A stretch of DNA of 64,000 nucleotides from Candidatus Aldehydirespirator sp. (GCA_965261105.1 CBDHCM010000006.1:2399595-2463594); one strand, 5' to 3'. Shown: positions 2,859 to 52,746, counted from the first letter of the stretch. The notes: generated from the sequence alone by a model not told the origin. Numbers and translations are program-made.

Positions 2859-3983
2859 TCACAAGGCAGCACCGAGGAGGGCGGCGGCGTGCACGGGGTG
2901 GCCGGCGTGGGCGGCTTTGTCCACTGCGGCTAGGGCGCCGGGGACGTCCAAGTCGTCGTCGAGGTGTTGGCGCACCTTGTCGAGGAGGCCGGAGTCGTCG
3001 CCGTCGCGGTCAGCGCTGCGCCACAGGGCGAGGCGGTGTTCGGCTTCCTTCAGGAGGCCGTCGTGCCAGGGCCACGGGGTGCGGTAGTGCTGCGACATGA
3101 GGGCCAAGCGGATCGCCATGGGCTCGTGCCGCGTGCGCAGCTCGTGCACGAACACCAGGTTTCCGAGCGACTTGGACATCTTGGCGCCCTCGTAGTGGAC
3201 CAGCGCCTGGTGCAGCCAGTGCCGTGCGAAGGGCTTGCCCGTCACCGCCTCGGACTGGGCCCGCTCGCACTCGTGGTGCGGGTACAGCAGGTCGGCTCCC
3301 CCGCCGTGCAGGTCGATGGTCTCGCCCAGTTCGCGCAGCGCCAGCGTCGAGCACTCCACATGCCAGCCCGGCCGCCCCGGCCCCCAGCGTGACTCCCAGT
3401 GGGGCTCGCCGGGGCGGGCCCTCTGCCAGAGCACGAAGTCGAGCGGATCTCGTTTGGCCGGGTCGTCGGGGTTGTCGCGCCACTCCCGGGCGAGGGCGAC
3501 CATGTGGTCGCGCCCGAATCCCGACAGCGACCCGAAGCCGTCGAAGGCCTGCGTGTCGAAGTACACGCTGCCGTCCGCGCGGTAGGCGAATCCCCGGTCC
3601 AGCGCGGCGTGTATGAAGCCCCGGATGTCGGGGATGGCCGACGTGGCCCGAGGCTCCGAGGCCGGCGGCAACGTGTTGAGCGCGGCCATGTCGTCGTCGA
3701 AGCGGGCCGTCTCTGCGAAGGCCAGGTCCAGGTAATGGACGCCGCGGCGGTCGGCTGCGGCCAGGATGTCGTCGTCCACGTCGGTGATGTTGCGCACGCA
3801 GCGGGTCTCACGGCCCATGTCCCGCAGGCGACGCTGCAGCACGTCGTAGGTGATGTAGGTGGCCGCGTGGCCGAGATGGGTGGCGTCGTAGGGCGTCAGG
3901 CCGCACACGTACATGCGGACCACCGGTCCAGCCTCGAAGTCCACCACCGCGCCCCGGGCCGTGTCGTAGAGCCGCAGGGTCAC
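2859..3983 (-). CDS. mshC: L-cysteine:1D-myo-inositol 2-amino-2-deoxy-alpha-D-glucopyranoside ligase (mycothiol ligase)
   Basis: CysRS-like catalytic core (THLGHAATY, KMSKS) without an anticodon-binding domain. Blocks WQRARPGEPHWESRWGPGRPGWHVECS and VRQHLDDDLDVPGALAAVD resemble mycobacterial MshC from memory. GTG start. Confidence 0.85.
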   Translation of the reverse strand: MTLRLYDTARGAVVDFEAGPVVRMYVCGLTPYDATHLGHAATYITYDVLQRRLRDMGRETRCVRNITDVDDDILAAADRRGVHYLDLAFAETARFDDDMAALNTLPPASEPRATSAIPDIRGFIHAALDRGFAYRADGSVYFDTQAFDGFGSLSGFGRDHMVALAREWRDNPDDPAKRDPLDFVLWQRARPGEPHWESRWGPGRPGWHVECSTLALRELGETIDLHGGGADLLYPHHECERAQSEAVTGKPFARHWLHQALVHYEGAKMSKSLGNLVFVHELRTRHEPMAIRLALMSQHYRTPWPWHDGLLKEAEHRLALWRSADRDGDDSGLLDKVRQHLDDDLDVPGALAAVDKAAHAGHPVHAAALLGAAL

Positions 3984-4047
3984 GCGGTGCTTTCCAGAGG
4001 TCGAGCCGCGCGGGCCACCGCGCCCCGGGCCGTGTCGTAGAGCCGCA
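3944..4047. repeat. 33-nt exact direct repeat (3944-3976 and 4015-4047) duplicating the mshC 5' end; creates a 22-codon uORF (4048..3980, minus)
   Basis: CCACCGCGCCCCGGGCCGTGTCGTAGAGCCGCA occurs twice, 71 bp apart. The upstream copy reads GTG-RLYDTARGAVARAARPLESTA-TGA, and its stop overlaps the mshC GTG (GTGA). Confidence 0.9.
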
Positions 4048-4063
4048 CGATCCCAAGGTACCG

Positions 4064-4840: not shown

Positions 4841-5037
4841 GAAGCCGAGCGGATAGGCCGCGATTCACTGGCGGCTTACAGGGGCGCTGAGCGAGGCCGT
4901 GGCCCGAGCGCCCGTGAATAGCCCCTATGTCAAGCTCGCCTCAAATCTGCACGGGTATTGCTCATATGTGACGGGTTTCTCTACTGATTTCGGTCGAGTG
5001 TGCCCGAGCGGCCCGTGAGCGCAGCGAACAAGAGCGG
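4841..5037 (-). repeat. dispersed ~100-nt intergenic element, copy A (reverse orientation, interrupted by 85 nt flanked by a 16-17-nt duplication)
   Basis: The reverse complement matches copies at 19482-19583 and 37764-37864. GCCCGAGCG(G)CCCGTGA occurs at 4901-4916 and 5002-5018 around a lower-GC insert. Starts 1 nt after the inhA stop. Confidence 0.8.
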
Positions 5038-5093
5038 ACATTGAACAAGAGCGGACATTGAACAAGAGCGGACATTGAACAAGGGCGGACATT
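5026..5093. repeat. 17-bp tandem repeat x4 (GAACAAGAGCGGACATT)
   Basis: Three exact units and one with a single substitution, read directly. The first unit overlaps the end of the dispersed element. Followed by GAGGCCGAGCGG (the element's terminal module). Confidence 0.95.
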
Positions 5094-5122
5094 GAGGCCG
5101 AGCGGCCCGGACGGCGCGGGGA

Positions 5123-12760: not shown

Positions 12761-13942
12761 TCAGCCGAGACGGGCGTGCACGACGCCGGCCAGGGCGGCG
12801 ATGCCCTCGGCGATGGCGTCTTCGGGTAGGTGGCCGAAGCACAGGCGCATCCGGCGGGCCCCGTACGCCGGATCGACGCACCAGCCCGCGCCCGGGTTGA
12901 ACTCCACTCCCGCTGCGGCCGCGGGCGCCACCAGCTCCGCGGTGTCGACTCCCTGCGGCAGCGCCGCCCACAGGAAGATCCCGCCCCTGGGCGGCACGAA
13001 TTCGGCAACGCCGGGGAGGTGCTCTCGCAGCGCCGCGGCCATGGTCTGGCACTTCGCGTCCAACACAGCGCTAAGCCGGGCGACGTGGGCATCGAAGTGC
13101 GAGGCTGCGTATTCCGCGACGACGATCTGCTCCAGCGCCCCCGAGCCGGCGTCGGTCTTGAGCGCAAGCAGCCGGCCCATGAAGGGCCAGTCGGCCACGA
13201 TGTAGCCCACCCGCAGCGCAGGGGCCAGAGTCTTGGAGAACGAGCCGCAGTACACGACCTGCCCGCCGCCCGCGTCCAGGGAGCGGATAGTGGGAGGGCG
13301 CCGCCCGTCGAAGGCCAGATCGGCATAGCAGTCGTCCTCGAAGATGGCCGCGCCGTGGCGGCGGGCAACCTCCAGCAGCTCGTGACGCCGCTCGACGGGC
13401 ATGACCGTGCCCGTCGGGTTCTGCACCGTGGGGATGGTGTAGACGAACTTCGGCCGGCGCCCCCGGGCGGCTAGGGCCCCGAGGACGTGGTCCAAGTGGT
13501 CGACGCGGATCCCGTCGCCGTCCAGGCCCACGCCGTGCACTTCGGCGCCCCGCTCAGCCAGCCGGCTCAGTGTTCCCGCGTAGGTGGCCTCCTCGACCAC
13601 CACGGCGTCGCCGGGCGCCAGCAGCGCGGCGTTCACCAGGTCGAGGGCCTGCAGGGAGCCCGACGTGACCAGAATCTCTGACGGGTCCGTCGGCATCAGC
13701 GCCCTGCGGTCGAGCGCTGCCGCGATGAACTCCCGCAACGGCAGATGCCCCTGCGGGCTGCCTCCGAGGTTGTAGCGGGCTAGCGCCGGTCCGTGGCGGG
13801 CCAGCGCGATCGCGGCGGACTCAGCAAACCCGCCGGACGGCACGCTGGCGGAGTCGTTGTGCCCGCCGACGAAGTTGAAGGGTAGATCGCCGGTCCATCG
13901 GGCCTCGCCGTCGGGGAGATCCGGCCGCAAGAGGGCCGCCAT
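12761..13942 (-). CDS. PLP-dependent aminotransferase, class I/II (2-aminoadipate/MocR-catalytic-domain-like)
   Basis: TSGSLQALD, PTVQNPTG, CGSFSKTLAPALRVGY (PLP lysine). Start ambiguous: ATG 13942, or GTG 14026 if the 18-bp repeat is translated. Confidence 0.8.
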   Translation of the reverse strand: MAALLRPDLPDGEARWTGDLPFNFVGGHNDSASVPSGGFAESAAIALARHGPALARYNLGGSPQGHLPLREFIAAALDRRALMPTDPSEILVTSGSLQALDLVNAALLAPGDAVVVEEATYAGTLSRLAERGAEVHGVGLDGDGIRVDHLDHVLGALAARGRRPKFVYTIPTVQNPTGTVMPVERRHELLEVARRHGAAIFEDDCYADLAFDGRRPPTIRSLDAGGGQVVYCGSFSKTLAPALRVGYIVADWPFMGRLLALKTDAGSGALEQIVVAEYAASHFDAHVARLSAVLDAKCQTMAAALREHLPGVAEFVPPRGGIFLWAALPQGVDTAELVAPAAAAGVEFNPGAGWCVDPAYGARRMRLCFGHLPEDAIAEGIAALAGVVHARLG

Positions 13943-14022
13943 GTCGAATCCGGCCGTCGTGTCGAACCCGGCCGTCGTGTCGAATCCGGCCGCCGTGTCG
14001 CGCCCGGCCGCCGTGTCGCACC
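13943..14022. repeat. 18-bp tandem repeat x~4.5 abutting the aminotransferase ATG
   Basis: GTCGAAYCCGGCCGYCGT units read directly. On the minus strand they encode (DT[AT]AGF)n, and each unit resembles the first 9 nt of the gene. Confidence 0.9.
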
Positions 14023-14142
14023 CCACCGCTGGAACCTACATGTGCGTCGCTTCCTGCTCCCCATCGAGCGACCCGGGCCCGAGGGGCAGGCACGCGGCGC
14101 CCCGCCGGCCCTCGGATGGGCCGGCGCGAGCGCCCGGGATCC

Positions 14143-19408: not shown

Positions 19409-19481
19409 TGCCTTCGATGCTAGGGCTGCCCCGCCGCTTCAGGGTGCATGGTCGGACCCCTTCCGCGCCCCGCCACTCGAT

Positions 19482-19583
19482 CCCGCTCCTGTTCGCTGAC
19501 GCTCACGGGCCGCTCGGGCCACGGCCTCGCTCAACGCCCGGCAGAACCGTCGTGAACTGCGCCCTTTCCGCTCGGCCTCTAGG
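19482..19583 (+). repeat. dispersed ~100-nt intergenic element, copy B (intact)
   Basis: CCCGCTCCTGTTCGCTGACGCTCACGGGCCGCTCGGGCCACGGCCTCGCTCAACGCC...CCGCTCGGCCTCTAGG. The terminal CTAG supplies the stop codon of the membrane-protein gene. Confidence 0.85.
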
Positions 19584-20994: not shown

Positions 20995-21061
20995 GGCAGC
21001 AACGGCTCCCGAGCTGTCTGTACCTCCGGGGCACGGCCGGCGCCGAGTTCGGGGCGTCGGT

Positions 21062-22138
21062 TCATGGCAGGAACGGCGCCGGGTCCACCGCGGTCCCGTC
21101 GACGCGGGCCTCGAAGTGCAGGTGCGGTCCGGTGGTCCGCCCGGTGGAGCCCATGGCCCCCAGCAGCTGGCCGGCATCTACGTCGTCGTCGGGACCGACC
21201 GCGAAGGAGTCGAGGTGCGCGTAGACGGTGGAGAGGCCCGCTCCGTGGTACACGACCACAGTGTTGCCGTAGAACGGGCAGTTCCGGGCCGAGATGACCT
21301 CGCCGTCGAGTACGGCCACCACCGGATCGCCGGTGTCGCCCCTGATGTCGGCCCCGTTGTGCTGGGAAAAGTAGCCCGTGACCGGATGCACCCGCATCCC
21401 GAAGCCCGAGCCGACCTCCCCGGGGGCCGGGAGTTGCTCCATGGGCAGGAACGCGTCGATGCCGAGGTCGGCGCGCTGTTGCGCGGCCCGGTCGCGCATG
21501 TCGGCCTCGACCCGGCGCAGTCCGTCCGCGATCAGCCTCAGGTCCCCGATCGTCTCCTCGTTGACCTCGATCTCCTCAAGGTCCTCGTCCACGCTGCGGT
21601 ACAGCAGGTAGATGCGCATCTCGTCGCCGCCGATGCTGTCGGTGACCACCTGCTCCAGGATCTTCTCCAGCGGCTGCGGGCAGGGGACCCGCATGCCGGG
21701 GTGCAGCACCGCAGTGTCCGAGACCGGGGTCGCCGACGGCAGCGGAAGGTCGCACCAGCCGCGGGAGTCCTCCCGCCATGCGCCTCCCAGCCCCTCGCAG
21801 GCCTCCTGCACCGACAGCGGCTCTGAGGGCGCCTGCCGGCTGGCCAGCTCGATCGCGGCCGCGATCGCGGCCGCGTCCACGGCTTCGTCGGCGGACGGAG
21901 TGGTCGGCGCGACCGGACTGGCCGTTGCAGTCGGCTCGGATGGGTCGACGGTGTCGGTGGGCTCGGATGGGTCGACGGTGTCGGTCGGCTCGGACGGGGC
22001 CACCCGTTCGGCTGCGTCGACCGGCGAATCCCGCGGGCCGACCAGCAGATCCGGGGTCTCGCGTATCAGCCAGGATGCCGCAGCCAGCACAATCAAGAGA
22101 ACGACGACAAGCGCAAGGAACCCTCGCCATTCACCCAC
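21062..22138 (-). CDS. M23-family metallopeptidase, membrane-anchored
   Basis: N-terminal TM helix; C-terminal HNGADIRG...GNTVVVYH...YAHL...GSTGRTTGPHLHFE. Contains a 27-bp repeat (PSEPTDTVD x2.3) at about 21933-21995. Confidence 0.85.
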   Translation of the reverse strand: MGEWRGFLALVVVLLIVLAAASWLIRETPDLLVGPRDSPVDAAERVAPSEPTDTVDPSEPTDTVDPSEPTATASPVAPTTPSADEAVDAAAIAAAIELASRQAPSEPLSVQEACEGLGGAWREDSRGWCDLPLPSATPVSDTAVLHPGMRVPCPQPLEKILEQVVTDSIGGDEMRIYLLYRSVDEDLEEIEVNEETIGDLRLIADGLRRVEADMRDRAAQQRADLGIDAFLPMEQLPAPGEVGSGFGMRVHPVTGYFSQHNGADIRGDTGDPVVAVLDGEVISARNCPFYGNTVVVYHGAGLSTVYAHLDSFAVGPDDDVDAGQLLGAMGSTGRTTGPHLHFEARVDGTAVDPAPFLP

Positions 22139-27824: not shown

Positions 27825-28979
27825 GTGGAGGACCGCAGGATCAGGCTGGTGGTGCTGTTCGGGGGGCGCTCCGCCGAACACGACGTGTCGTGCGTGTCGG
27901 CCCGCCACGTGGTGGCTGCCGCCGACCCGCGAAAGTACGTCGTCGAGGCGGTCGGCATCACCCGGGACGGCCGCTGGGTGAAGGCCGCGGAGGCGATCGA
28001 GGCCCTGAGCGCCGGCCCGGACGCGCTGCCCGAGCGGCTCAGCGCCGTCGGCCCCGAGGTGCAGCCCCTGCCCGCGCTGAGCACCGACTCAGAGCTTCGC
28101 AGCGCAAGCCGCAGCTCCAACCCTGGCGGTCCCACGGTTGTGCTGCCCATCCTTCACGGCCCTATGGGCGAGGACGGAACGGTGCAGGGCCTGCTGGAGC
28201 TGGCCGGGGTCCCCTACGCCGGAGCTGGTGTGCTGGCCTCGGCGCTGTGCATGGACAAGACCGCGGCCAACACCATGCTGGCCCAGGCCGGGATCGCCCA
28301 CACCCGCTGGCGCGCCGTCACCGTCGACGACCCCCACGCAGGCGACACCGATCTGGCGGCGGTCCTTGACGCCATGATCGAGGACTTGGGCCTGCCCGTG
28401 TTCATCAAGCCCGCAAGCATGGGATCCTCGGTCGGAGTCTCCAGGGCTTCGACCCGCCCGCAGGCGGCCGAGGGTCTGCGCCTCGCCTCGCGCTATGACC
28501 GCAGCATCGTCGTGGAGGAGGAGGCCCGGGCCCGGGAGATCGAAGTCGCCGTCTTGGGCAACGACCACCCCGAGGCGAGCCTGCCCGGCGAGATCGTCCC
28601 GGGCGCGGACTTCTACGACTACGCCGACAAGTACGACGACGGTGCTGAACTGGTGATTCCGGCCCCCCTCGACGACGACGAGGTCGCCACGTGCCGGCGC
28701 ATCGCCATAGACGCCTACCGGGCTCTGCGGGTGGAGGGGCTGGCCAGGGTCGACTTCCTGTACGAGGACGGCCGCGACGGCCGCGGCGACCGGGGCTGGC
28801 TGGTAAGCGAGCTCAACACCATGCCGGGCTTCACGCCCATATCGATGTACCCCAAGCTCTGGGCGGAGAGCGGCCTCGGCTACCCGCAGCTCATCGACCG
28901 GCTGGTGGACCTGGCCCTGGAGCGTCACGCCCGGCTCCAGCGCCACACTCTCACCGACCCGGCCACCCCGGCGTCGTGA
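27825..28979 (+). CDS. ddl: D-alanine--D-alanine ligase
   Basis: RLVVLFGGRSAEHDVS, HGPMGEDGTVQGLLE, KPASMGSSVGV, ELNTMPGFT. GTG 27825 chosen; the track start 27705 adds an Arg/Pro-rich extension overlapping murF. Confidence 0.85.
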   Translation: MEDRRIRLVVLFGGRSAEHDVSCVSARHVVAAADPRKYVVEAVGITRDGRWVKAAEAIEALSAGPDALPERLSAVGPEVQPLPALSTDSELRSASRSSNPGGPTVVLPILHGPMGEDGTVQGLLELAGVPYAGAGVLASALCMDKTAANTMLAQAGIAHTRWRAVTVDDPHAGDTDLAAVLDAMIEDLGLPVFIKPASMGSSVGVSRASTRPQAAEGLRLASRYDRSIVVEEEARAREIEVAVLGNDHPEASLPGEIVPGADFYDYADKYDDGAELVIPAPLDDDEVATCRRIAIDAYRALRVEGLARVDFLYEDGRDGRGDRGWLVSELNTMPGFTPISMYPKLWAESGLGYPQLIDRLVDLALERHARLQRHTLTDPATPAS

Positions 28980-29106
28980 GCTTCGGGCGGGCGCGCCGAC
29001 CGGGGCGGGAGCACCCCGGCCGCGCCGAATCGGGCGCCGTCGTGAGCCTCCGGCGCCCGCGGCCACTAGAACTCGTGAGCCTCCGGCGCCCGCGGCCACT
29101 AGAACT
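28975..29106. repeat. 33-bp tandem repeat x4 (two diverged + two exact) beginning in the ddl stop codon
   Basis: Exact units CGTGAGCCTCCGGCGCCCGCGGCCACTAGAACT at 29041-29073 and 29074-29106. CGTGAGC also spans the ddl TGA at 28975, 66 bp (2 units) upstream. Confidence 0.85.
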
Positions 29107-29112
29107 AACGGC

Positions 29113-31587
29113 GTGATCACCGAGTCTCTAGCCGGAAAGCGCATCGCCGTCACCGGCGCGACCGGGTTTCTGGGGACCGCGCTCACCGAGCGTCTGCTGC
29201 GCTGCGTGCCCGACTGCGAGCTGGTGCTGTTGGTGCGCCCGGGTCGGCGCGGCGCGGCCGCGCGGGTGCAGCGCGACGTGCTGCGCTACGACGCCTTCGA
29301 CCGACTCCGAGAGGAGATGAAGCAGCCGGACGCGGCCGAGACCTACAACGAGATGACAGCCCGGCGGGTCAAAGCCCTCGCCGGGGACGTGAGCACCGAC
29401 GGGCTCGGACTCGACGACGAGGGCCGGGCCCTGCTCGCCAGTTGCGACATCGTGATCCACTCGGCGGCCACCGTGAACTTCGACTCGGCCCTCGACGACG
29501 CCGTGGAGGTCAACCTGCTCGGACCGGCCCGGGTGGCCGAGGTGCTGAACGAGGAAGGCTCTGAAGCGCACCTGGTCGCGGTGTCCACCTGCTATGTGGC
29601 CGGCAGCCGGCGGGGCGCCGCGCCCGAGCAGATGGTGGACGAGTCGCCGTTCTTCACCGACGTCGGCTGGCGCGAGGAGGTCGCCAGTGCCCGCCGGGCC
29701 CGCCGAGACGCCGAGCAGGCCAGCCGCAGCCCCGAGCGCCTGGCCGCGCTGTCGGCCCAGTCCCGCCGGGAGCTGGGCGCAGCAGGCACACCGGCGCTGT
29801 CGGAGAAGGTGGAGAGCCTGCGCCGCCGCTGGGTGAACGAACAGATGACCGTGGCCGGCCGGGCCCGGGCAGCCAGCCTCGGCTTCCCCGACGCCTACGC
29901 CTTCACCAAGGCCCTGGGCGAGCGGGCCCTGGCCGAGACCCGCGGCGACATCGCGGTGACCATCGTGAGGCCCTCGATCATCGAGTCGGCCCTGGCCGAT
30001 CCCTATCCGGGATGGATCCGGGGATTCCGCATGGCCGAGCCGGTGATCGCGGCCTACGCCCGGGGATTGCTCAAAGAGTTCCCCGGGGTGCCCGAGGGCA
30101 TCGTCGACGTGATCCCGGTGGATCTGGTGGTGGCCACGATCCTGGCCGTGGCCGCCCGGGGCCCTGTCGATCCCAGCCCCGACGTCATCCAGATCGCCAG
30201 CGGCTCCATCAACCCGCTGAAGTACGGCACGTTGTTCGACCTGGTGAGCGGATGGTTCACCGAGCACCCCGTGTACGACGCGCACAACCAGCCGATCCCC
30301 GTGCCGCGCTGGTCTTTCCCCGGCCGCGGCAGGGTGGCCCGGCAGCTCCAGCGAGTCCAGCGCTCGCTGGAAACCGCCGACCGAGTGCTGTCCGCGCTGC
30401 CGCTGAGGGGACGCCACGCCGTGATGAGCGCCACCCTCGAAGAACGCCGCCTTCAGCTCGAGCGGGCCAGCGACTACGTCAAGCTCTACGGCGCCTACGC
30501 CGAGTGCGAGGCCATCTATCAGCTGGACCGCCTCATGGCGCTGTGGGACTCGCTCGACGACGCCGACCGCTCCGCATTCTGCTTCGACCCTCGCATCCTG
30601 GACTGGACCCACTACGTGCAGGAGGTGCACCTGCCGTCGATGGTGCAGCAGGCCCGTCTGAAGATGGCGCCCGGGGCAGGGGCAGGCCGGACTGAGTCCC
30701 GCTCGGCCCGGCTGCGCCGCCAGGTGCTGGCGCCGGAGCGCCACCTAGCCGTGTTCGACTTGGAGAACACGCTCATCGCGTCGAACGTGGTGGCCAGCTA
30801 CGCGTGGCTGGCCACCCGGCAACTCGGCGACCTCGACCGGGTGCGCTTCGTGACCCGCACGCTGGCGGAGGCGCCGAGGCTGCTCGCCTTGGACCGCCGC
30901 GACCGCAGCGACTTCCTGCGCTACTTCTACCGGCGCTTCGAGGGGGCCTCGAAGGACCGCATCGACGCCGACTGCGTGGAGATGCTCAGCGACCTGATAA
31001 TCACCAAGTCGTTCCCCCAGGGGATCCGGAGGGTTCGCGAGCACCGCCAGGCGGGCCACACGACCCTGCTCATCACCGGGGCGCTGGACTTCGTGGTGGC
31101 ACCGCTGCGGCCCCTGTTCGACCACATCGTGGCCGCGGAGATGGGGTCGAGCGACGGCGTCTACGACGGCCGCCTCACCGCCGTCCCCCCGACCGGCGAG
31201 GCCCGCTACCAGACGCTGGCCGACTTCACCGACCTCCACGGCCTCGACCTGCGGGAGTCGGTGGCCTACGCCGACAGCACATCGGACCTGCCCATGCTGG
31301 AGGCGGTCGGCTTCCCGGTGGCGGTCAACCCCGAGACCAAGCTGGCCGCGCTGGCCCGGAGGCGGGGCTGGCTGATCGAGCACTGGTCCACCAGCGCCGG
31401 CGCACCGGCCAAGCTTCTGCCGATGGCGCCCCGCATCCGCGGCCGAGCCCGTCCCGCTGCTCTAGCCGGATCCGCCGGCCTGCGGAAGTCCGCTGCTCTA
31501 GCCGGATCCGCCGGCCTGCGGAAGTCCGCTGCTCTGGCCGGATCCGCCGGCCTGCGGAAGTCCGCTGCTCTAGCGGGGTCCGCCTGA
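29113..31587 (+). CDS. fusion protein: fatty acyl-CoA/ACP reductase (NAD_binding_4, 'male sterility' type) + HAD-IB hydrolase
   Basis: N-terminal VTGATGFLG, IHSAATVNF, YAFTKALGE (Y..K), RPSII. C-terminal AVFDLENTL (DxD-type HAD motif I), LITGAL, YADSTSDLPML. Repeat-encoded tail. Confidence 0.8.
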   Translation: MITESLAGKRIAVTGATGFLGTALTERLLRCVPDCELVLLVRPGRRGAAARVQRDVLRYDAFDRLREEMKQPDAAETYNEMTARRVKALAGDVSTDGLGLDDEGRALLASCDIVIHSAATVNFDSALDDAVEVNLLGPARVAEVLNEEGSEAHLVAVSTCYVAGSRRGAAPEQMVDESPFFTDVGWREEVASARRARRDAEQASRSPERLAALSAQSRRELGAAGTPALSEKVESLRRRWVNEQMTVAGRARAASLGFPDAYAFTKALGERALAETRGDIAVTIVRPSIIESALADPYPGWIRGFRMAEPVIAAYARGLLKEFPGVPEGIVDVIPVDLVVATILAVAARGPVDPSPDVIQIASGSINPLKYGTLFDLVSGWFTEHPVYDAHNQPIPVPRWSFPGRGRVARQLQRVQRSLETADRVLSALPLRGRHAVMSATLEERRLQLERASDYVKLYGAYAECEAIYQLDRLMALWDSLDDADRSAFCFDPRILDWTHYVQEVHLPSMVQQARLKMAPGAGAGRTESRSARLRRQVLAPERHLAVFDLENTLIASNVVASYAWLATRQLGDLDRVRFVTRTLAEAPRLLALDRRDRSDFLRYFYRRFEGASKDRIDADCVEMLSDLIITKSFPQGIRRVREHRQAGHTTLLITGALDFVVAPLRPLFDHIVAAEMGSSDGVYDGRLTAVPPTGEARYQTLADFTDLHGLDLRESVAYADSTSDLPMLEAVGFPVAVNPETKLAALARRRGWLIEHWSTSAGAPAKLLPMAPRIRGRARPAALAGSAGLRKSAALAGSAGLRKSAALAGSAGLRKSAALAGSA
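31456..31587. repeat. 36-bp in-frame tandem repeat x3.6 forming the C-terminal tail (AALAGSAGLRKS)n of the reductase-HAD fusion
   Basis: GCTGCTCTAGCCGGATCCGCCGGCCTGCGGAAGTCC units at 31456, 31492 and 31528, with a partial unit at 31564 ending in TGA, which overlaps the next ATG (TGATG). Confidence 0.95.
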
Positions 31588-33200
31588 TGGCCGCTGAGCA
31601 CCACAAGACGCCTCGCCCGGGGCTGGTACTGGAAGTCGACCGGTCCACCCCGCCGGTCCTGTTCCACCACGGCGACGGCTTCCGCCTGGAGAGGCTGCCC
31701 GCGGGTCGCAGCCGGGTGATCTATCCGGCCGAGCCCGTCGCGGGCCTCGCCGACCCGGAGGCGGCCATCCGCGACGCCCTGCTGAACCCGCTCGACTCCG
31801 ACCCGCTGCCGGCGCTGTTGCGTCCGGGGATGAAGCTGACGATCGCCTTCGACGACGTGTCGCTGCCGCTGCCGCCGATGCGGCGGCCCGACATCCGCGA
31901 GCGAGTTGTCGAGCAGGTCCTCGACATGGCGGCCGCCGCGGGGGTGGACGACGTGCACCTGATCGCGGCGCTGGCCCTGCACCGCCGCATGACCGACGAC
32001 GAGCTGCGCCACGCCCTGGGCGAGCGGGTGTTCGACGCTTTCGCCCCCCAGGGGGCGCTGTACAACCATGACGCCGAGGATCCCGACGGCATGGTCGTTC
32101 TAGGCCGCACCGACCACGACGAGTTGGTCACCATGAACCGGCGGGCCGCCGAGAGCGACCTGCTGGTGTACGTGAACATCAACCTGGTGGCCATGGACGG
32201 GGGCTGGAAGTCCACGGCCACGGGCCTGGCCGACTACCGGGCGCTGCGCCACCACCACAACGTCCGCACCATGCAGCAGTCGCGCTCGTTCATGGACCAG
32301 CCCCGCTCGGAGCTGCACCGCTCCAACTGGCGCCAGGGAGAGGTGATCAAGTCCAACGGGCCCCCGATCTTTCAGATCGAGACCACCGTCAACAACAACA
32401 CCTTCGGACGGGACGGACCCCTGGCCGTGCTGCAGAAGCGCGAGTGGGAGTGGACGGTGAAAGACCGGGCCTCGTTCATGGCCATGCAGGCCGGGCTCAA
32501 GGCGATGCCCCCCTCGGGCCGCCGGGGCGTGTTCGGCCGCTGGCTGGCGCCCTATGAGTTGACTTCGGTACAGGCCGGGGCGGTGGAGGCGGTCCACGAG
32601 AGCACCACCGCCAATGTCATGGCCCAGCACCTGGTGCCGGTGAAGGGCCAGACCGACGTGCTCACCATGGGGCTGCCCTACATCTGCCCCTACAACGTGA
32701 ACTCGGTCATGAATCCGATCCTGGTGATGTGCCTGGGCCTCGGGTACTTCTTCAACCTGTACCGGGGCAAGCCCTTGGTGCGCGAGGGCGGCGTGGTCAT
32801 CATGAGCCACCCGACCCGATGGGAGTTCCACCCCGTCCACCATCCCAGCTACATCGACTTCTTCGAGCAGCTCCTGGCCTCCACCACCGACCCGGTCGAA
32901 CTCGAGGCCAAGTACGAGGAGCAGTTCGCCACCGACGAGTGGTACGTGCACCTGTACCGCACCAGCTACGCCTACCACGGTGTGCATCCCTTCTACATGT
33001 GGTACTGGGGGGCGCATGCCCTGCAGTGGCTGGGCCGGGTGATCGTGGTGGGCGGCGATCCGAGGGCAGTGCGCAGGATGGGCTTCCAGCCCGCCTCGAC
33101 CCTGTCGGACGCCCTGGAGATGGCCGGCGACGTGGTGGGGCCGTCGCCCACGATCACCCACCTGCACAACCCGCCGATCCTCATGGCCGACGTGGAGTGA
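31587..33200 (+). CDS. LarA-like protein (lactate racemase N-terminal domain / DUF2088 family)
   Basis: NPLDSDPLPALLRPGMKLTIAFDDVS, IAALALHRRMTDDEL, YNHDAEDPD, LLVYVNINLVAMDGGWKS...HHHN follow the DUF2088 pattern. 537 aa. Confidence 0.75.
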   Translation: MAAEHHKTPRPGLVLEVDRSTPPVLFHHGDGFRLERLPAGRSRVIYPAEPVAGLADPEAAIRDALLNPLDSDPLPALLRPGMKLTIAFDDVSLPLPPMRRPDIRERVVEQVLDMAAAAGVDDVHLIAALALHRRMTDDELRHALGERVFDAFAPQGALYNHDAEDPDGMVVLGRTDHDELVTMNRRAAESDLLVYVNINLVAMDGGWKSTATGLADYRALRHHHNVRTMQQSRSFMDQPRSELHRSNWRQGEVIKSNGPPIFQIETTVNNNTFGRDGPLAVLQKREWEWTVKDRASFMAMQAGLKAMPPSGRRGVFGRWLAPYELTSVQAGAVEAVHESTTANVMAQHLVPVKGQTDVLTMGLPYICPYNVNSVMNPILVMCLGLGYFFNLYRGKPLVREGGVVIMSHPTRWEFHPVHHPSYIDFFEQLLASTTDPVELEAKYEEQFATDEWYVHLYRTSYAYHGVHPFYMWYWGAHALQWLGRVIVVGGDPRAVRRMGFQPASTLSDALEMAGDVVGPSPTITHLHNPPILMADVE

Positions 33201-33460
33201 CCGGGCCATGCCGCGCGACGCCAACACCACCATGGCCGACGCCGGAGTGACCGGGCCATGCCGCGGGACGCCAACACCACCATGGCCGACGCCGGAGTGA
33301 CCGGGCCATGCCGCGGGACGCCAACACCACCATGGCCGACGCCGGAGTGACCGGGCCATGCCGCGGGACGCCAACACCACCATGGCCGACGCCGGAGTGA
33401 CCGGGCCATGCCGCGGGACGCCAACACCACCATGGCCGACCTGGAGTGACCGGGAGGGGG
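33182..33460. repeat. 50-bp tandem repeat x5.5 spanning the LarA-like stop and the PlsC-like ribosome-binding site
   Basis: Units at 33182 (49 bp), 33231, 33281, 33331 and 33381, plus a partial at 33431. Each has CATGGCC...GGCCATG (7-bp hairpin), GGAG, TGA and ATG. The last unit runs into GGGAGGGGG-N7-ATG 33468. Confidence 0.95.
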
Positions 33461-33467
33461 TGAGCTG

Positions 33468-34421
33468 ATGGGGATCGCGCACGACCTCGGCCTGGTGCGG
33501 ATGGGGCGCCGTCTGCCGTCGCCGGCGCGCGCCCTGCGGGCTCGCACGTTCCCGCTGCGGGCGCCCAACGTCCCGCGAGGGGTGAAGCCACCGGAGACGC
33601 CGGGCCGCCTCGGCGCCGACTACGACACCGATTGGGCTCGCCGCTGGCCGGCCCGGATGTGCCGGGCCGCGATCCTCGAGGGTCCGATGCGGGCCATGGT
33701 GCAGGTGCTGGCCTCGCCCAGCCGCCGCGGCGCCGACCGGCTGGCCGATCTGGACGGCCCGTTGATCTTCGCGGCCAACCACCACAGCCACATCGACACT
33801 CCCCTGCTTCTCACGTCGATCCCCGAGCCGTGGCGCCACAAGATCGTGGTGGGCGCGGCCGCCGACTACTTCTTCGGCACCAGGGTGTCCGGCGCGGTCG
33901 CCGCCCTGGTGAGCGGGGCCATCCCCATCGAGCGGGCCCGGGTGGGCCGCCGCTCCGCTGACCTCGCCGCGGGGCTGATCGACGGCGGATGGAGCCTGCT
34001 GATCTACCCGGAGGGCGGGCGCAGCCCCGACGGCTGGGGACAGCCGTTCCGGGGCGGGGCCGCCTACCTGTCGGTGCGCTGCGGAGTGCCGGTGGTGCCG
34101 ATCCACGTCGGCGGCACCGGCAGCATCCTGCGCAAGGGCCGCACGATGCCCAAGCCCGCCGAGGCCACCGTGACCTTCGGCACTGCGTTGAGGCCCGACG
34201 AGGGCGAGCGGGCCCCCCGGTTCGCGGCCCGGATCGAGGCCGCCGTGACCGCTCTGGCCGACGAGGCCGGCACCGACTGGTACTCGGCCCGCAAGCGGGC
34301 CCACGCCAGCACGAGCGGCACCCTCACCGGCCCCGACGCGGGGGTCTGGCGCCGCCAATGGGCCCTGGGCGGCCGCCGCCGCACCCCGTCGACCCGCTCC
34401 CGCCGCTGGCCCGACCTGTAG
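33468..34421 (+). CDS. lysophospholipid/glycerol-phosphate acyltransferase family protein (PlsC-like)
   Basis: FAANHHSHIDTP (HX4D block), YPEGGRSPDG (block III), VPVVPIHV. Confidence 0.8.
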   Translation: MGIAHDLGLVRMGRRLPSPARALRARTFPLRAPNVPRGVKPPETPGRLGADYDTDWARRWPARMCRAAILEGPMRAMVQVLASPSRRGADRLADLDGPLIFAANHHSHIDTPLLLTSIPEPWRHKIVVGAAADYFFGTRVSGAVAALVSGAIPIERARVGRRSADLAAGLIDGGWSLLIYPEGGRSPDGWGQPFRGGAAYLSVRCGVPVVPIHVGGTGSILRKGRTMPKPAEATVTFGTALRPDEGERAPRFAARIEAAVTALADEAGTDWYSARKRAHASTSGTLTGPDAGVWRRQWALGGRRRTPSTRSRRWPDL

Positions 34422-37524: not shown

Positions 37525-37530
37525 GCCACC

Positions 37531-37584
37531 CATGGCGGCAGGACCCCGCATAGCGGCAGGACCCCGCATGGCGGCAGGATCCCG
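37531..37584. repeat. 18-bp tandem repeat x3 (CATGGCGGCAGGACCCCG) starting 7 nt after the aconitase stop
   Basis: Three units with 1-2 substitutions, read directly. Confidence 0.9.
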
Positions 37585-37763
37585 CGTGGCCGACGCCATC
37601 AGGCGCATCGTGCGGAGCGAGGCGGCGAACCAGCCCCACATCCACGCCGTGCAGTCGCGCCCACAGCAGACGGCCGCGGCGCGGTCCTCGCATCTACGAT
37701 GACCACTATGCTTACAGCATGCGCTGATCGGTTGGCACCGCCTCGCGTCGCAGCGTCTCATTT

Positions 37764-37864
37764 CCCGCTCTTGTTCGCTGCGCTCACGGGCCGCTCGGGC
37801 CGCGGCCTCGCTCAGCGCATCGCGAGGTCCTCGTGAACCCTGGCCAAACCGCCCGGTCTCTGAC
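37764..37864 (+). repeat. dispersed ~100-nt intergenic element, copy C (intact)
   Basis: CCCGCTCTTGTTCGCTGCGCTCACGGGCCGCTCGGGCCGCGGCCTCGCTCAGCGC... aligns with copy B along its length. Overlaps the GTG start proposed for the carboxyltransferase. Confidence 0.85.
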
Positions 37865-39224
37865 AGCCTCTCAGACGACCACGATCGGCATCCGCGCCGG
37901 GGCCTCCGGGTTCGTCCACAGCCGTGTGACGGCCATCGGCGCCCGGACCGTCGTCGAGATCGACGCCCGCGGGTCTGAGGAGAACCGCAGCAGAGCGCTG
38001 ACGCCCGCCGACGGCCAGAGCATGGCCGCCGCAGCCTGCCTGGCCCGCACACAGCGGCTTCCGGTGGTGCTGAGGCTGGCATCCTCCGGCGCCGACCTCA
38101 ACGCCGGGGTCGCCGCCCTCCACGGCTGGGCCACCGCGGCCGCGGAGCTGGCTCGCTGCTCGGGGGTAGTGCCGGTGATCGTGATCGCGGCCGGACCCAA
38201 CGTCTCGGGCCCGGCCCTGCTGCTGGGCTTGGCCGACTTCGTGGTGATGACCGCCGACGCCTATGCCTTCGTGGTAGGGCCCCAGATGGTGGAGCACTTC
38301 ACCGGTATGCCCGTAGACCGCGACGAGCTGGGCGGCGGCGAGACCCACTCCGTCACCTCGGGCGTGGCCAGCTTCCTGGCCGCTGACATGTCCGAGGCCG
38401 ACGAGATAGCGGCCGAGCTGCTCGGCTACCTCCCTGACAGCAACGACTCCGACCCGCCCGCCCGGGTGTGCACCGATCCTGCCGACCGGGCTGTGCCCGA
38501 GGCCTTCGAGGTGCTGCCGGCCGAGTCGGGGGGAGCCTACGACGTGCGCGACGTGCTGGCCGCGGTCGCCGACCACGGCGTGCTGCTGGAGCCTCACACC
38601 TACTGGGGCGCCAACCTGGTGACCGCGTTCGCCTCCTTGGGGGGGCGGCCCGTCGGGATCGTGGCCAACCAGCCCCAGTCGCTGGCCGGGACGCTCGACA
38701 TCACCGCCTCCCGCAAGGGCGCCCGCTTCGTGGCCTTCTGCGACGCGTTCAACCTTCCGCTGGTGACCTTCGTCGACACGTCCGGCTTCTACCCGGGCAA
38801 AGACCTGGAGTGGCGGGGAATGATCCGCTACGGGGCCCAGCTGGCGTTCTCCTATGCACGGGCCACGGTCCCCCGAGTCAATGTCACCCTGCGCAAGTCC
38901 TACGGCGGCGCGTACATCGTGATGGACTCCAAGCCGATGGGCAACGACGTGGCCCTGGCGTGGCCCACGGCCGAGATCGCGGTGATGGGAGCCAAGGGGG
39001 CGGTGGAGATCCTGCACCGGTCGGCCGGCGCGGCCGAGCGGGCTGCGATGGAGGCGGCCTACGAGCAGCGCCTCCTGAACCCGTACGCCGCCGCGGATCG
39101 CGGCGCCATCGACTCGGTGATCGAGCCGGCCGACACGCGGCGGGAGATCTGCGCCGCGCTGGAGATGCTCGTCTCCAAGCGGGAGCGCCTGCCCCGGCGA
39201 CGCCACGACAACGCCCCGCTGTAA
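37833..39224 (+). CDS. acyl-CoA carboxylase carboxyltransferase (beta) subunit
   Basis: GGGETHSVTSGVA, IVANQPQSLAGTLDITASRKGARFV, FCDAFNLPLVTFVDTSGF, RKSYGGAYIVM. The start is uncertain because it lies in a repeat element. Confidence 0.8.
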   Translation: MNPGQTARSLTASQTTTIGIRAGASGFVHSRVTAIGARTVVEIDARGSEENRSRALTPADGQSMAAAACLARTQRLPVVLRLASSGADLNAGVAALHGWATAAAELARCSGVVPVIVIAAGPNVSGPALLLGLADFVVMTADAYAFVVGPQMVEHFTGMPVDRDELGGGETHSVTSGVASFLAADMSEADEIAAELLGYLPDSNDSDPPARVCTDPADRAVPEAFEVLPAESGGAYDVRDVLAAVADHGVLLEPHTYWGANLVTAFASLGGRPVGIVANQPQSLAGTLDITASRKGARFVAFCDAFNLPLVTFVDTSGFYPGKDLEWRGMIRYGAQLAFSYARATVPRVNVTLRKSYGGAYIVMDSKPMGNDVALAWPTAEIAVMGAKGAVEILHRSAGAAERAAMEAAYEQRLLNPYAAADRGAIDSVIEPADTRREICAALEMLVSKRERLPRRRHDNAPL

Positions 39225-39612
39225 CGCCACGATCGGCGCCCCGAAACAAGCGCCCGCTGCAACAGAACCGCCTTACACACCCCGCCATAACGCCCCGAAA
39301 CAAGCGCCCGCTGCAACAGAACCGCCTTACACGCCCCCCGCCATAACGCCCCGAAACAAGCGCCCCCCTGCAACAGAACCGCCTTACACGCCCCCCGCCA
39401 TAACGCCCCGAAACAAGCGCCCGCTGCAACAGAACCGCCTTACACGCCCCCCGCCATAACGCCCCGAAACAAGCGCCCGCTGCAACAGAACCGCCTTACA
39501 CGCCCCCCGCCATAACGCCCCGAAACAAGCGCCCCGCCGAAAAAGCCCCCATATGTGCGCCCTGCTGCAAAAGCCTCGACAAATGCGCTCCGGCCATAAA
39601 CGCCCCGCTGTA
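39210..39612. repeat. ~56-bp tandem repeat x~6.5 between carboxyltransferase and gltA, bracketed by a 14-nt direct repeat of the carboxyltransferase 3' end
   Basis: Units CGCCCCGAAACAAGCGCCCGCTGCAACAGAACCGCCTTACACGCCCCCCGCCATAA start at 39237, 39291, 39347, 39404, 39460 and 39516, plus a diverged last unit. AACGCCCCGCTGTA occurs at 39210-39223 and 39599-39612. Confidence 0.9.
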
Positions 39613-39614
39613 GT

Positions 39615-40940
39615 GTGATGACCGATGATGGCCAGCATGACGATCACCGCCGCCGGCCGAACGGGGTGTATCGCGTGACTGAGAGCATCACCATCACCGA
39701 CAACCGCAGCGGGAGCAGCATCGAGATCCCGATCGTCGCGGGCGGCGTCGACTCCGCGGCCTGGCGCAAGCTGCTGCCAGGCGTCTGGTTCCACGATCCG
39801 GGGCTGGCCACCACCGCGGTCACCTCCAGCGCGGTGGCCCAGATCGACGGCGAGGCCGGCATCCTGCGCTACCGCGGCTACCCCATCGAGCAGCTGGCCG
39901 AGCACAGCACGTTCCCGGAGGTCGCCCACCTCCTCATTTACGGGGAGCTGCCCACCCAGGCCGAGCTCGACGAGTGGGTGCACGAGATAACCCGGCACAC
40001 GTTCATCCACGAGAACTTTCGCAAGCGCGTCTTCGACGCCTTCCACTACGACGCCCACCCGATGGGGTTGCTCACCTCGGGCGTGGCGGGCCTGTCCACC
40101 TTCTATCCCGAGGCCAAGGACATCTTCGACCCCGACAATCGCAGGGCGCAGATCGTCCGCTTGATCGCCAAGATGCCCACGCTGGCCGCGGCGGCCTACC
40201 GGTTCTCGAGGGGCCTGCCGTTCATCTTCCCCGACAACGCCCACGACTACCCGGAGCGCTTTCTGAAGATGATGTTCGACGTCGGCGGCGACTACGAGCC
40301 CGACGAGGCCCTCGTGCGGGCCATGCGGGTGCTGTTCATCCTGCACGCCGACCACGGCCAGAACTGCTCCACCACGGCGACCCGCGTTGTCGGGTCGAGC
40401 CACGCCGACCCCTACACCGCTATCGCGGCCGGCTGCGCCGCCCTCTACGGGCCGCTGCACGGAGGGGCCAACGAGGCCGTGATCAACATGCTGAATCAGA
40501 TCGGCACCTTCGACGAGGTCGACAGCTTCATCGCCGGCGTGAAGCGGGGCGGGCACCGGCTGATGGGATTCGGGCACCGCGTGTACAAGAACTACGACCC
40601 GAGGGCGGTCATCATCAAGGAGGCGGCCCACGACGTGTTCGCGGTGATCGGCAAGAACCCGCTGCTCGACATCGCCCTCAAGCTTGAGGAGGTCGCGCTG
40701 GCCGACGACTATTTCGTGAGCCGGCGCCTGTACCCGAACGTGGACTTCTACTCGGGCCTCATCTACCAGTCGCTGGGCTTCCCCACCAACATGTTCACCG
40801 TGCTGTTCGCCATTGGCCGCACCCCCGGGTGGCTGGCCCACTGGAACGAGCTGATCGAGCAGAACTCCCGGATATACCGGCCCCGCCAGGTCTACGTGGG
40901 CGCCGAGCGGCGCGACTACGTGGCGATGTCAGACCGCTAG
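39615..40940 (+). CDS. gltA: citrate synthase
   Basis: GILRYRGYPIEQL, LHADHGQNCSTT, GPLHGGANE, GFGHRVYKNYDPR, NVDFYSG. Confidence 0.95.
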   Translation: MMTDDGQHDDHRRRPNGVYRVTESITITDNRSGSSIEIPIVAGGVDSAAWRKLLPGVWFHDPGLATTAVTSSAVAQIDGEAGILRYRGYPIEQLAEHSTFPEVAHLLIYGELPTQAELDEWVHEITRHTFIHENFRKRVFDAFHYDAHPMGLLTSGVAGLSTFYPEAKDIFDPDNRRAQIVRLIAKMPTLAAAAYRFSRGLPFIFPDNAHDYPERFLKMMFDVGGDYEPDEALVRAMRVLFILHADHGQNCSTTATRVVGSSHADPYTAIAAGCAALYGPLHGGANEAVINMLNQIGTFDEVDSFIAGVKRGGHRLMGFGHRVYKNYDPRAVIIKEAAHDVFAVIGKNPLLDIALKLEEVALADDYFVSRRLYPNVDFYSGLIYQSLGFPTNMFTVLFAIGRTPGWLAHWNELIEQNSRIYRPRQVYVGAERRDYVAMSDR

Positions 40941-43843: not shown

Positions 43844-44200
43844 TCAGTCGCCGGCGGCGCCGGCCTCGTTGCGAGCCAGGTCGTGGTGGCGGATGACCTC
43901 GTCGATCACGAATCGCAGGAACTTCTCACTGAAGGACGGGTCGAGGTTCGCCGCTGCGGCCAAGTCGCGCAGCCGGGCGATCTGCTGCTCCTCGCGCTGG
44001 GGGTCGGCGGGCGGCAGTCCGACGCTCGCCTTGTAGACGCCGATCTGCTTGGTGACCTTGAACCGCTCCGCGAGCAGCAGAATCAGCGCGGCGTCGATGT
44101 TGTCGATGCTCGACCGGTACCCGGCCAGCGTCTCGTCCTCGGCGCCTGCACTCACAGCTAGGCAAGCTATCGCCCACCAGGGACGGGAGCGCCTGTTCAT
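43844..44200 (-). CDS. chorismate mutase (AroQ class)
   Basis: YRSSIDNIDAALILLLAERFKVTKQIGVYKASVGLPPADPQREEQQIARL...FLRFVIDEVIRHH. The start (ATG 44200) lies in a duplicated segment, so it is uncertain. Confidence 0.7.
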   Translation of the reverse strand: MNRRSRPWWAIACLAVSAGAEDETLAGYRSSIDNIDAALILLLAERFKVTKQIGVYKASVGLPPADPQREEQQIARLRDLAAAANLDPSFSEKFLRFVIDEVIRHHDLARNEAGAAGD

Positions 44201-44259
44201 AGGTAGCAGGAGCATCCGATGATTGAGTCCATCGCCCCCAGGGATGGGAGCGCCTGTTA
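44169..44259. repeat. ~30-nt direct repeat (period ~61) duplicating the chorismate mutase start region
   Basis: ATCGCCCACCAGGGACGGGAGCGCCTGTTCA (44169-44199, contains the ATG on the minus strand) versus ATCGCCCCCAGGGATGGGAGCGCCTGTTA (44231-44259). Confidence 0.85.
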
Positions 44260-49005: not shown

Positions 49006-49011
49006 GAACAC

Positions 49012-52448: not shown

Positions 52449-52688
52449 ATGGCCCGTGCGATATCGGTACGACTCGACGAGGCGGCTCTCCGCGCCTTGA
52501 GCCAGCTAGAGGCTCATGGCCTGACACAGTCGGAGGCCATCCGATCATCGCTGGTGCATGAAGCCGCACGGATGAGCGCCCGCCAGGCGCTGGCAGCGGA
52601 AGTCGCCGCCCTGGAGGCCGACGAGGCCGACCGAGCCGAGATGAGCGACGTCGCCAGTCTCATGGAACAGCTCCGTGCGCCGGAGTGA
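52449..52688 (+). CDS. ribbon-helix-helix antitoxin (MazE/CopG-like)
   Basis: MARAISVRLDEAALRALSQLEAHGLTQSEAIRSSL is a typical RHH N-terminus; upstream of a PemK/MazF gene. Confidence 0.7.
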   Translation: MARAISVRLDEAALRALSQLEAHGLTQSEAIRSSLVHEAARMSARQALAAEVAALEADEADRAEMSDVASLMEQLRAPE

Positions 52689-52746
52689 GTCCGGCGTGAG
52701 CGGCTCGACGCCGGATCGTCGGGAACAGCTCCGTGCGCCGGGGTGA
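52664..52746. repeat. 25-nt direct repeat, period 58 bp, duplicating the antitoxin-stop / toxin-start junction
   Basis: GGAACAGCTCCGTGCGCCGGAGTGA (52664-52688) versus GGAACAGCTCCGTGCGCCGGGGTGA (52722-52746). The first holds the antitoxin TGA, the second the toxin GTG (52733). Confidence 0.9.

Follow-up and report, generated by a model that had tools for sequence, protein, structure and literature searches.

Introduction

Locus-specific variable-number tandem repeats (VNTRs), or minisatellites, arise by slipped-strand mispairing, as exemplified by the ETR and QUB loci used in multiple-locus VNTR analysis typing. The MIRU-VNTR loci of Mycobacterium tuberculosis (MIRU, mycobacterial interspersed repetitive unit) were reportedly described by Supply et al. 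in 1997 and 2000. The MIRUs of this organism, at 41 loci, form one dispersed, sequence-related family that is presumed to be mobile (PMC3914561, PMC12548453); ETR loci are also mentioned in PMC3914561. Translational coupling by termination-reinitiation at overlapping stop and start codons has been reviewed (PMC12548453). In this work we analyzed the tandem arrays of a 64-kb stretch of DNA from Candidatus Aldehydirespirator sp. (the window; its coordinates count from its first letter), among them those at three successive junctions between the genes for Ddl, a fatty-acyl reductase (FAR), a LarA-like protein (LarA) and a PlsC-type acyltransferase (PlsC).

An earlier note on this DNA had described these arrays as MIRU-like. 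Their geometry agrees with that description: several of them hold small open reading frames (ORFs) whose start and stop codons overlap the flanking stop and start codons, with -4 overlaps (GTGA/ATGA) among them, units of tens of bp stand in tandem between co-directional genes of a high-GC actinobacterium (the window has a G+C content of 68.8%), and the copy number varies among strains. They differ from MIRUs in that each array is locally built from units unrelated to those of the others, many units are shorter (17-36 bp), and some arrays lie at convergent or divergent boundaries or in-frame in genes. Units of 49/50, 56, 58, 61, 71 and 73 bp fall inside the MIRU range of ~46-101 bp, and those of 17, 18, 33 and 36 bp outside it. 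The ddl/FAR, FAR/LarA, LarA/PlsC, carboxyltransferase/citrate synthase (CT/CS) and mazE/mazF arrays lie between co-directional genes; the mshC duplication (divergent), the 17-bp and 73-bp arrays (convergent) and a 50-bp x7.2 array (plain intergenic DNA) do not. The arrays thus resemble MIRUs functionally, but are not members of the MIRU family.

With VNTRs the arrays share a head-to-tail arrangement of high identity, the gain and loss of whole units among strains, a local origin, and periods divisible by three (3n) in coding sequence. They differ in their density (~0.2 arrays per kb, 3.3% of the window), in the large share that carries copied stop or start codons, and in nested duplications, with successive rounds at one junction. 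Their likeness to known coupling systems lies in the ancestral junctions (TGATG, GTGA) and in relay ORFs with canonical -1 and -4 overlaps, whereas coupling here would need passage through up to five successive predicted mini-ORFs. A literature search returned no paper that combines Acidimicrobiia with intergenic tandem repeats, and none relevant on bacterial gene-junction tandem duplication or on the named candidate genera; this agrees with the earlier note, whose author was not aware of a description for such a lineage. We conclude, with a probability of about 0.7, that the arrays are young, locally generated minisatellites (VNTRs) of the slippage type, placed by a selection sieve.

Results

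Arrays at the ddl, FAR, LarA and PlsC junctions

Arrays were located with Tandem Repeats Finder (TRF), a repeat search and direct reading of the sequence. The gene names proposed earlier were upheld by Pfam, both for the four genes above and for aconitase, CT, CS, an MshC/CysS-like protein, an aminotransferase, chorismate mutase and the MazF toxin (Table 1). The LarA-like protein of the window is 91-92% identical to proteins from Acidimicrobiales metagenome-assembled genomes of the sponge-symbiont clade, among them Ca. Aldehydirespirator and a bin of the Aplysina type, and the host is an uncultured sponge-associated actinobacterium of this clade. Window proteins matched contigs of ENA sample ERZ25068833, and an exact match of the FAR protein lies on a contig of up to 4.63 Mb; L081 and L082 are other contigs from the sample of the window, to which they are 99.8% and 99.95% identical. 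Five other samples supplied loci L163-L169, which were fetched via proteins of the FAR cluster and share 90-95% DNA identity with the window. The closest array-free species, the sister species L002 and L003, have single-copy junctions.

At the LarA/PlsC junction the 50-bp x5.5 array was found as first described. The true end of LarA is the first copy, and the last copy retains a Shine-Dalgarno-like GGGAGGGGG ahead of the PlsC ATG at 33468. The single-copy state in relatives is GTGGAGTGACCGGGAGGGCGTGAGCTAGTG. Homologous 49-bp arrays of 0 to 4.4 copies occupy this junction in L163-L169, where the LarA-to-PlsC spacer measures -1, 66, 117, 164, 165, 214 and 214 nt in the seven alleles, against 267 nt in the window. 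The eight lengths correspond to 0-5 extra 49/50-bp units, in steps of ~49-50 nt, and include two allele pairs, each from a single sample with an identical FAR protein. L167 (14085-14105) has lost the array together with part of the ancestral spacer, so that the junction reads GACGTGGGCTGATGG and the LarA C-terminus has changed from DVE to DVG; array contraction can therefore overshoot into deletion.

The ddl/FAR junction is a composite. A 33-bp x2.0 array with 100% identical copies (29040-29106) lies next to a 66-bp duplication of the ddl 3' end that is older and diverged (28969-29000 versus 29035-29066, 78% identity). The array is present, but not as the 33 bp x4 previously counted. The 33-bp unit consists of the final two ddl codons and stop (TCGTGA) plus the conserved spacer, and in relatives the junction is TCGTGA + GCCTCCGGCGCCCGCGGCCACTAGAACTAACGGC + GTG. 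The single-copy state TCGTGAGCCTCCGGCGCCCGCGGCCACTAGAACTAACGGCGTG is present in L002-L004 and L164, the 66-bp step without the 33-bp step in L163, L168 and L169, and the 33-bp step is confined to the window and L081. A stepwise series (single copy, then +66 bp, then +33 bp) thus survives. The microhomology at the borders of the youngest duplication (33 bp x2) is 1 nt. The 34-nt spacer GCCTCCGGCGCCCGCGGCCACTAGAACTAACGGC itself is almost the same in species that differ by 10-20% in coding DNA (window 29047-29112; L001-L004, L164), and it encodes a 13-codon ORF with a GTGA overlap at each end. Its constancy suggests that it acts as a coupling ORF or a regulatory site.

At FAR/LarA, the 36-bp x3.6 array has the size and copy number given before, but it does not copy a stop codon: each unit has a TAG, though not in the FAR frame, and the real FAR stop is a single TGA (31585-31587) that overlaps the LarA ATG at 31587. 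The array lengthens the FAR tail in-frame. The single-copy state in relatives ends in ...GGTCCGCCTGATGGCC, and within a 90%-identity protein cluster the FAR tails carry 0, 1 or 3 extra 12-amino acid units (792, 804 and 828/824 amino acids). The claim that the units of all three arrays copy the last codons and stop of the upstream gene thus holds for ddl (TCGTGA) and LarA (GGAGTGA), and does not hold for the 36-bp array.

Local origin and variability of the arrays

Within the non-coding arrays the TRF match is 87-100%. The arrays are real, because independent contigs and related genomes carry them. That they are artefacts of metagenome assembly is extremely unlikely. The contig names suggest a low coverage (4x, 5x) and a few single-base indels separate L081 from the window, but the same arrays are present in separate contigs of the same sample, homologous arrays in five other samples, and comparable arrays in the unrelated assemblies L017 and L042; furthermore, the arrays are at most 362 bp long and their copy-number differences are whole units. 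When the copy number was compared across relatives, as the earlier note had proposed, it varied at LarA/PlsC, in the FAR tail and in the 56-bp array of the CT/CS junction.

The units match sequences found once at their own locus in relatives, namely the ddl stop and spacer, the LarA end and spacer, the FAR end, the aconitase/CT spacer and the CT end. As judged from such alignments, each unit is a copy of a local gene end, spacer or gene start. The 18-bp unit of the aconitase/CT spacer occurs once in the L163 spacer (GATAGCGGCAGCGGTCCC); the array said to lie at the aconitase stop is real, but the stop is not copied (Table 1). At CT/CS, the array first described as 56 bp x6.5 was confirmed with 5.3 copies (39237-39534), or 6 when a degenerate first copy over the stop is counted (39221-39534). 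It is flanked by two copies of the CT end (GCCCCGCTGTAA, GCCCCGCTGTAG), the junction also holds a diverged copy of the CS 5' end, and L081 has 6.3 copies against 5.3 in the window, i.e., one extra unit. L163 and L169 have different arrays here, of 28, 42 and 50 bp, whose units derive from the same gene end and gene start; in L163 a DDE transposase (20174-21775) has entered the junction, adjoining the arrays. Independent duplications have struck the same junctions in other lineages: 47 nt in L001 and L004, 43 nt in L004, 62 bp x2.2 in L042 and 40 bp x3.3 in L017.

Between some copies (mazE, L017, ddl) there is apparently foreign filler, which had first suggested an insertion with target duplication. 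This was rejected, since on gapped comparison the filler aligns to the flanking gene or spacer and proves to be diverged local sequence. An all-versus-all comparison of 14 units gave 4 of 91 pairs that beat 40 shuffles, with ~2 expected by chance, and the best cross-locus match is an 11-nt gene-end motif, CGCCGGAGTGA; the units are mutually unrelated, as had been claimed, and therefore they do not belong to one mobile family. Hairpin- or terminator-driven slippage was rejected as a general cause: DNA folding gave z below -2 for only one of 10 units, the 36-bp one. An Rfam scan of the window revealed two tRNAs only and no RNA family at the arrays. In JGI metagenome contigs no match to an exact unit was found, and the protein scan gave none closer than 80% identity.

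A dispersed element of about 60 nt

A dispersed ~60-nt element (CCCGCTCTTGTTCGCTGCGCTCACGGGCCGCTCGGGCC...; core CCCGCTCTTGTTCGCTGCGCTCACGGGCCGCTCGGGCCRCGGCCTCGCTCAGCGC) occupies no fewer than three window loci and also occurs in close relatives; individual sites are filled in some close strains and empty in others (Table 1). It resembles REP- or MITE-like elements (repetitive extragenic palindromes or miniature inverted-repeat transposable elements) in its dispersal and in its filled and empty sites; this likeness is limited to the ~60-nt core, which forms no significant fold or hairpin and is not the source of the main arrays. There is a possible 5-6-nt target duplication (ACGGC-like), and the terminal repeats are only suggestive. 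The 5' end of CT has a 149-nt insertion with one copy inside it. The old CT ATG (37699) there opens a 45-codon ORF whose TGA (37834) overlaps the new GTG start (37833) in a GTGA motif, which is the MIRU arrangement, made here by a possibly mobile element. A truncated copy of the element begins with the 17 nt that form the unit of the 17-bp array.

These findings bear on the proposal that a mobile MIRU-like family, inserting at stop/start junctions, gave rise to the arrays. According to PMC12548453, MIRUs insert at start codons and contain a coupled internal ORF; the geometry of the arrays is similar, and the CT insertion with its dispersed element has exactly this arrangement. We nevertheless consider such a family very unlikely, given that the array units are mutually unrelated, that each one matches its own single-copy junction in relatives, and that neither terminal inverted repeats nor target-site duplications flank the arrays in the junction alignments. 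What the dispersed element has seeded is limited to the 17-bp array of the window and, in L164 and L165, a 44-bp duplication.

Placement of the arrays and a proposed selection sieve

As first noted, arrays lie at or adjoining gene boundaries. With a boundary array defined as one within 20 nt of a start or stop, and with uniform placement as the null, the proposed enrichment was weak in the window (6 of 12 arrays versus 3.1 expected, P=0.05) and clearer in the relatives (13 of 35 versus 5.2, P=0.0006). Arrays also occur at convergent 3' ends, in the divergent 5' region of mshC, in plain intergenic DNA and inside genes. The period depends on the location: it is divisible by three in 26 of 27 in-gene arrays versus 6 of 20 outside genes (Fisher P 5e-5 for the relatives alone), and in the close clade, with the gene calls of the sources themselves, 15/15 in-gene arrays have 3n periods. 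The 3n rule in genes therefore points to purifying selection acting on position-blind duplication.

In simulations, random duplications of the observed sizes fell inside genes in 85% of cases, and 40% of the remainder spanned a start or stop codon; many duplications that escape the sieve contain a stop or start because the genome is compact. Position-blind duplication followed by a selection filter explains most of the placement and leaves a modest excess. The expected boundary share is uncertain (0.40-0.50), since the simple gene caller used probably overstates intergenic space.

Could duplication itself be targeted to gene or translation boundaries, by breaks or polymerase switching at gene ends, e.g., in transcription-termination conflicts? 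The enrichment over uniform placement, the excess that remains after the sieve (9/13 versus 40-50% expected) and the repeated hits on the same junctions in separate lineages would all fit such a process. However, the strict in-gene 3n rule means that duplications do arise in genes and are then filtered, a divergent promoter region holds arrays, as does plain intergenic DNA, there is no general hairpin- or terminator-like unit structure, and the background rate predicts recurrence at one junction over the ~90 lineages sampled. We therefore regard a targeted process as quite unlikely. A locus-independent mechanism at translation boundaries, which the earlier note had favoured, is not supported: besides the 3n rule, the non-boundary arrays and the weak enrichment in the window, the relay chains described below are automatic.

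Two further patterns were tried and rejected. A bias of the periods to 2 mod 3, which would favour GTGA chains, was not seen, as the non-3n periods comprise 11 at 2 mod 3 and 9 at 1 mod 3. The clustering of arrays at three successive junctions is not special either: ~20% of junctions are duplicated, and runs of three are thus expected by chance at a rough ~0.4 per window.

Relay ORFs at coupled junctions

Chains of predicted relay ORFs, in which each start codon overlaps the preceding stop, connect the flanking genes at LarA/PlsC, ddl/FAR and mazE/mazF, and are also present in L001, L004, L042 and L163-L169; one of the predicted relay peptides is VTGPCRGTPTPPWPTPE. The single-copy ddl/FAR junction of relatives likewise passes the relay-chain test. 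At LarA/PlsC the chain from the LarA stop to the PlsC start is unbroken in 8/8 alleles, despite 0-5 units, 49/50-bp periods and internal indels. In the ancestral LarA/PlsC junction all three frames meet a stop codon within ~26 nt (window 33190-33470; L002/L003 11600-11640), and a start codon overlaps every one of these stops (GTGA, GTGA, then TGATG or TAGTG); because of these overlaps, a ribosome in any frame would be funnelled to the PlsC start. No relay chain was found in the arrays at uncoupled junctions (CT/CS, aconitase/CT, L016, L017, L025, L056).

The arrays could be selected regulatory devices, in which the number of relay mini-ORFs tunes coupling and operon stoichiometry as a rheostat or contingency locus. 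The 8/8 alleles, the chains at ddl/FAR and mazE/mazF, and the three-frame, start-overlapped stops of the ancestral junction are what such a device would show, and shuffled spacers of the same composition keep the chain in only 5-30% of cases. Chain retention is, however, expected without selection: simulated junction-spanning duplications keep the chain in 75% of cases, which gives 0.75^8 = 0.10 for the eight alleles, and the real arrays keep it in 88-100% of cases after random mutation, with 94-100% for single random mutations. In addition, the Shine-Dalgarno-like sequence of the last unit means that PlsC need not depend on the relay, and arrays without a chain exist at uncoupled junctions. 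The chance that the arrays are regulatory devices is therefore slim, and the relay chain as evidence of selection was rejected. The chain is an automatic by-product, because a copied coupled junction carries the overlap motifs, and it is probably the reason why coupled junctions tolerate arrays and why these arrays look MIRU-like; the relay ORFs themselves may be translated.

Array density in the clade

For counting, arrays with a TRF score of at least 80 and a period of at least 15 were considered. The window holds 12 arrays in 64 kb (0.19 per kb, 3.3% of bases), and the close relatives (90-95% identical) 0.22 per kb. Coding repeats in the gene insertions of L166, L167 and L169 (see below) inflate the TRF counts for those loci. 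In 1.17 Mb of other Acidimicrobiales the density was 0.030 arrays per kb (0.28% of bases), with ~0.035 per kb in the long-read chromosomes among them, and JGI metagenome contigs gave 0.018 per kb. The count in the window has a Poisson P of ~1e-6 at the rate of the relatives. The unusual feature of the clade is the array density, ~0.2 versus ~0.03 per kb.

In a further reading, the clade has a raised, possibly boundary-biased rate of tandem duplication, the products of which are kept because copied coupling junctions relay ribosomes. We hold this to be unlikely. If true, the clade would offer a live example of MIRU-like repeats born locally, and variable relay arrays could tune operon stoichiometry.

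Other arrays and neighbouring genes

The features are collected in Table 1. Several arrays named in the earlier note lie outside the three junctions. The 18-bp array at the aminotransferase start and the 58-bp duplication at mazE/mazF were as described. The latter also holds the overlapping mazF start: copy 1 ends mazE (TGA 52686) and copy 2 gives the mazF GTG (52733), so that the duplication has separated the formerly overlapping mazE and mazF. The mshC duplication, with its 71-bp period, is real, and its upstream copy forms a mini-ORF ending in a TGA that overlaps the real GTG (3983-3981); the neighbour, a short-chain dehydrogenase gene (4064-4840, + strand), is divergent, so there is no intercistronic junction. 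The ~61-bp duplication placed at the chorismate mutase start is also real, but ends ~19 nt short of the start codon. Arrays not listed before are those of 17 bp x4.1 and 50 bp x7.2 and the in-frame coding ones of 27, 21 and 36/15 bp. Within 7 kb beyond the left end of the window, a 73 bp x2.5 array lies over the stop of a convergent gene.

Table 1. Genes, arrays, relay ORFs and dispersed-element sites; positions refer to the window unless a locus is named.
Feature	Position	Strand	Remarks
mshC 5' end, 71-nt two-copy duplication	3944..4059	-	copies 3944-3988 and 4015-4059; divergent intergenic region
17-bp x4.1 array	5026..5095	-	between convergent genes, 28 nt past CNNM stop
18-bp x5 array over aminotransferase start	13934..14023	-	last unit holds ATG (13942-13940); upstream copies have ACG instead
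27-bp x2.6 in-frame array, (PSEPTDTVD)n	21930..21998	-	M23 peptidase linker; in-gene 3n-period class
ddl	27705/27825-28979	+	Pfam
ddl/FAR composite	28969..29106	+	older 66-bp duplication plus perfect 33-bp x2
Relay ORF, 46 codons	28976..29116	+	GTG overlaps ddl TGA (GTGA); TGA overlaps FAR GTG (GTGA)
FAR ("reductase" of the earlier note), fatty-acyl reductase (NAD_binding_4) and HAD fusion	29113-31587	+	Pfam
36-bp x3.6 array, FAR C-terminal tail	31454..31584	+	in-frame (AALAGSAGLRKS)x3.6
LarA, LarA_N-like protein	31587-33200	+	Pfam
50-bp x5.5 array, LarA/PlsC	33182..33454	+	each unit: last LarA codons, TGA stop, spacer-derived sequence
Five chained relay mini-ORFs, 16-23 codons	33197..33468	+	each GTG overlaps preceding TGA; last TGA overlaps PlsC ATG (TGATG)
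PlsC, PlsC-type acyltransferase	33468-34421	+	Pfam
18-bp x3.3 array, aconitase/CT spacer	37526..37590	+	starts 2-7 nt past aconitase stop (37522-37524)
149-nt insertion, CT 5' end	37720..37868	+	carries dispersed element; site empty in L163, L168, L169
CT/CS junction	39221..39680	+	~13 nt in relatives, ~450 nt in window
Chorismate mutase 61-nt two-copy duplication	44174..44258	-	5' leader or promoter region; start codon 44155 not included
50-bp x7.2 array, 100% identity	44387..44748	.	non-coding, between chorismate mutase and insertion sequence (IS) transposase; not at a gene boundary
TD/TG-rich in-frame low-complexity array, 36/15 bp	45828-46145		IS-type DDE transposase (45274-47103)
21 bp x14 in-frame array, (GGVGSAG)x14	47855-48150		DUF222-HNH endonuclease (47170-49011)
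mazE 3' end, 58-nt duplication	52631..52746	+	copies 52664-52688 and 52722-52746; PemK/MazF by Pfam
Dispersed element sites	37720-37868, 19481-19533, 5002-5037, 4884-4910; L164 2265, 8627, 19562-19739; L169 2315; L019 12703

Several neighbouring features were recorded. The toxin-antitoxin pairs mazEF, RHH/PIN and PhdYeFM/PIN are present (window 52449-53773; L082 14954-16421), and a second transposase is encoded at 59991-61334. Large leucine-rich-repeat and other repeat-protein genes are inserted between PlsC and aconitase in L166 (16182-20662), L167 (17867-19396) and L169 (15716-15945), and are absent from the window. Upstream of window position ~26485, L081, which represents a co-occurring strain 99.8% identical downstream, carries unrelated sequence (1-2364) with a RecJ-like gene; the position is a strain-level rearrangement breakpoint.

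Discussion

Young, locally generated minisatellites could have formed as follows. A segment of 17-73 bp would be duplicated in tandem, independently of its position, with template switching or slippage during replication as the likely cause. Once two copies are present, slipped-strand mispairing would gain or lose whole units. In genes, survival would be limited to in-frame duplications, most of them in tails and linkers. A duplication across a gene end would be harmless, the first copy keeping the stop and the last copy the ribosome-binding site and the next start, and so may be neutral. Where the copied segment is a coupled junction (GTGA, ATGA, TGATG), the copies would form a chain of mini-ORFs that could hand terminating ribosomes to the downstream start.

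Several points weigh against this reading. The mutational mechanism itself is not observable from sequence, and the sampling comprises ~90 kb of the host genome and ~150 kb of close relatives only. Outside genes, the boundary-spanning share of 9/13 exceeds expectation (P=0.03 at an expected 0.40; 0.13 at 0.50), and our own tally of distinct non-genic loci in the close clade gives ~13/19. Finally, the array density of the clade is ~6-fold higher than elsewhere (0.19-0.22 versus 0.03-0.035 per kb).

The natural intermediates found here show that MIRU-like geometry can arise without a mobile element, which offers a simple origin hypothesis for MIRUs: operon junctions tolerate minisatellites because a copied coupled junction reproduces the stop/start overlaps. 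In long-read metagenomes, the arrays can also serve as ready multi-locus VNTR markers by which strains of uncultured sponge symbionts are followed, and they carry a warning for annotation, as start codons, C-terminal tails and intergenic lengths vary with the array state in this clade. The ~6-fold excess of arrays in one clade makes the fidelity of repair or replication in these symbionts a tractable question.

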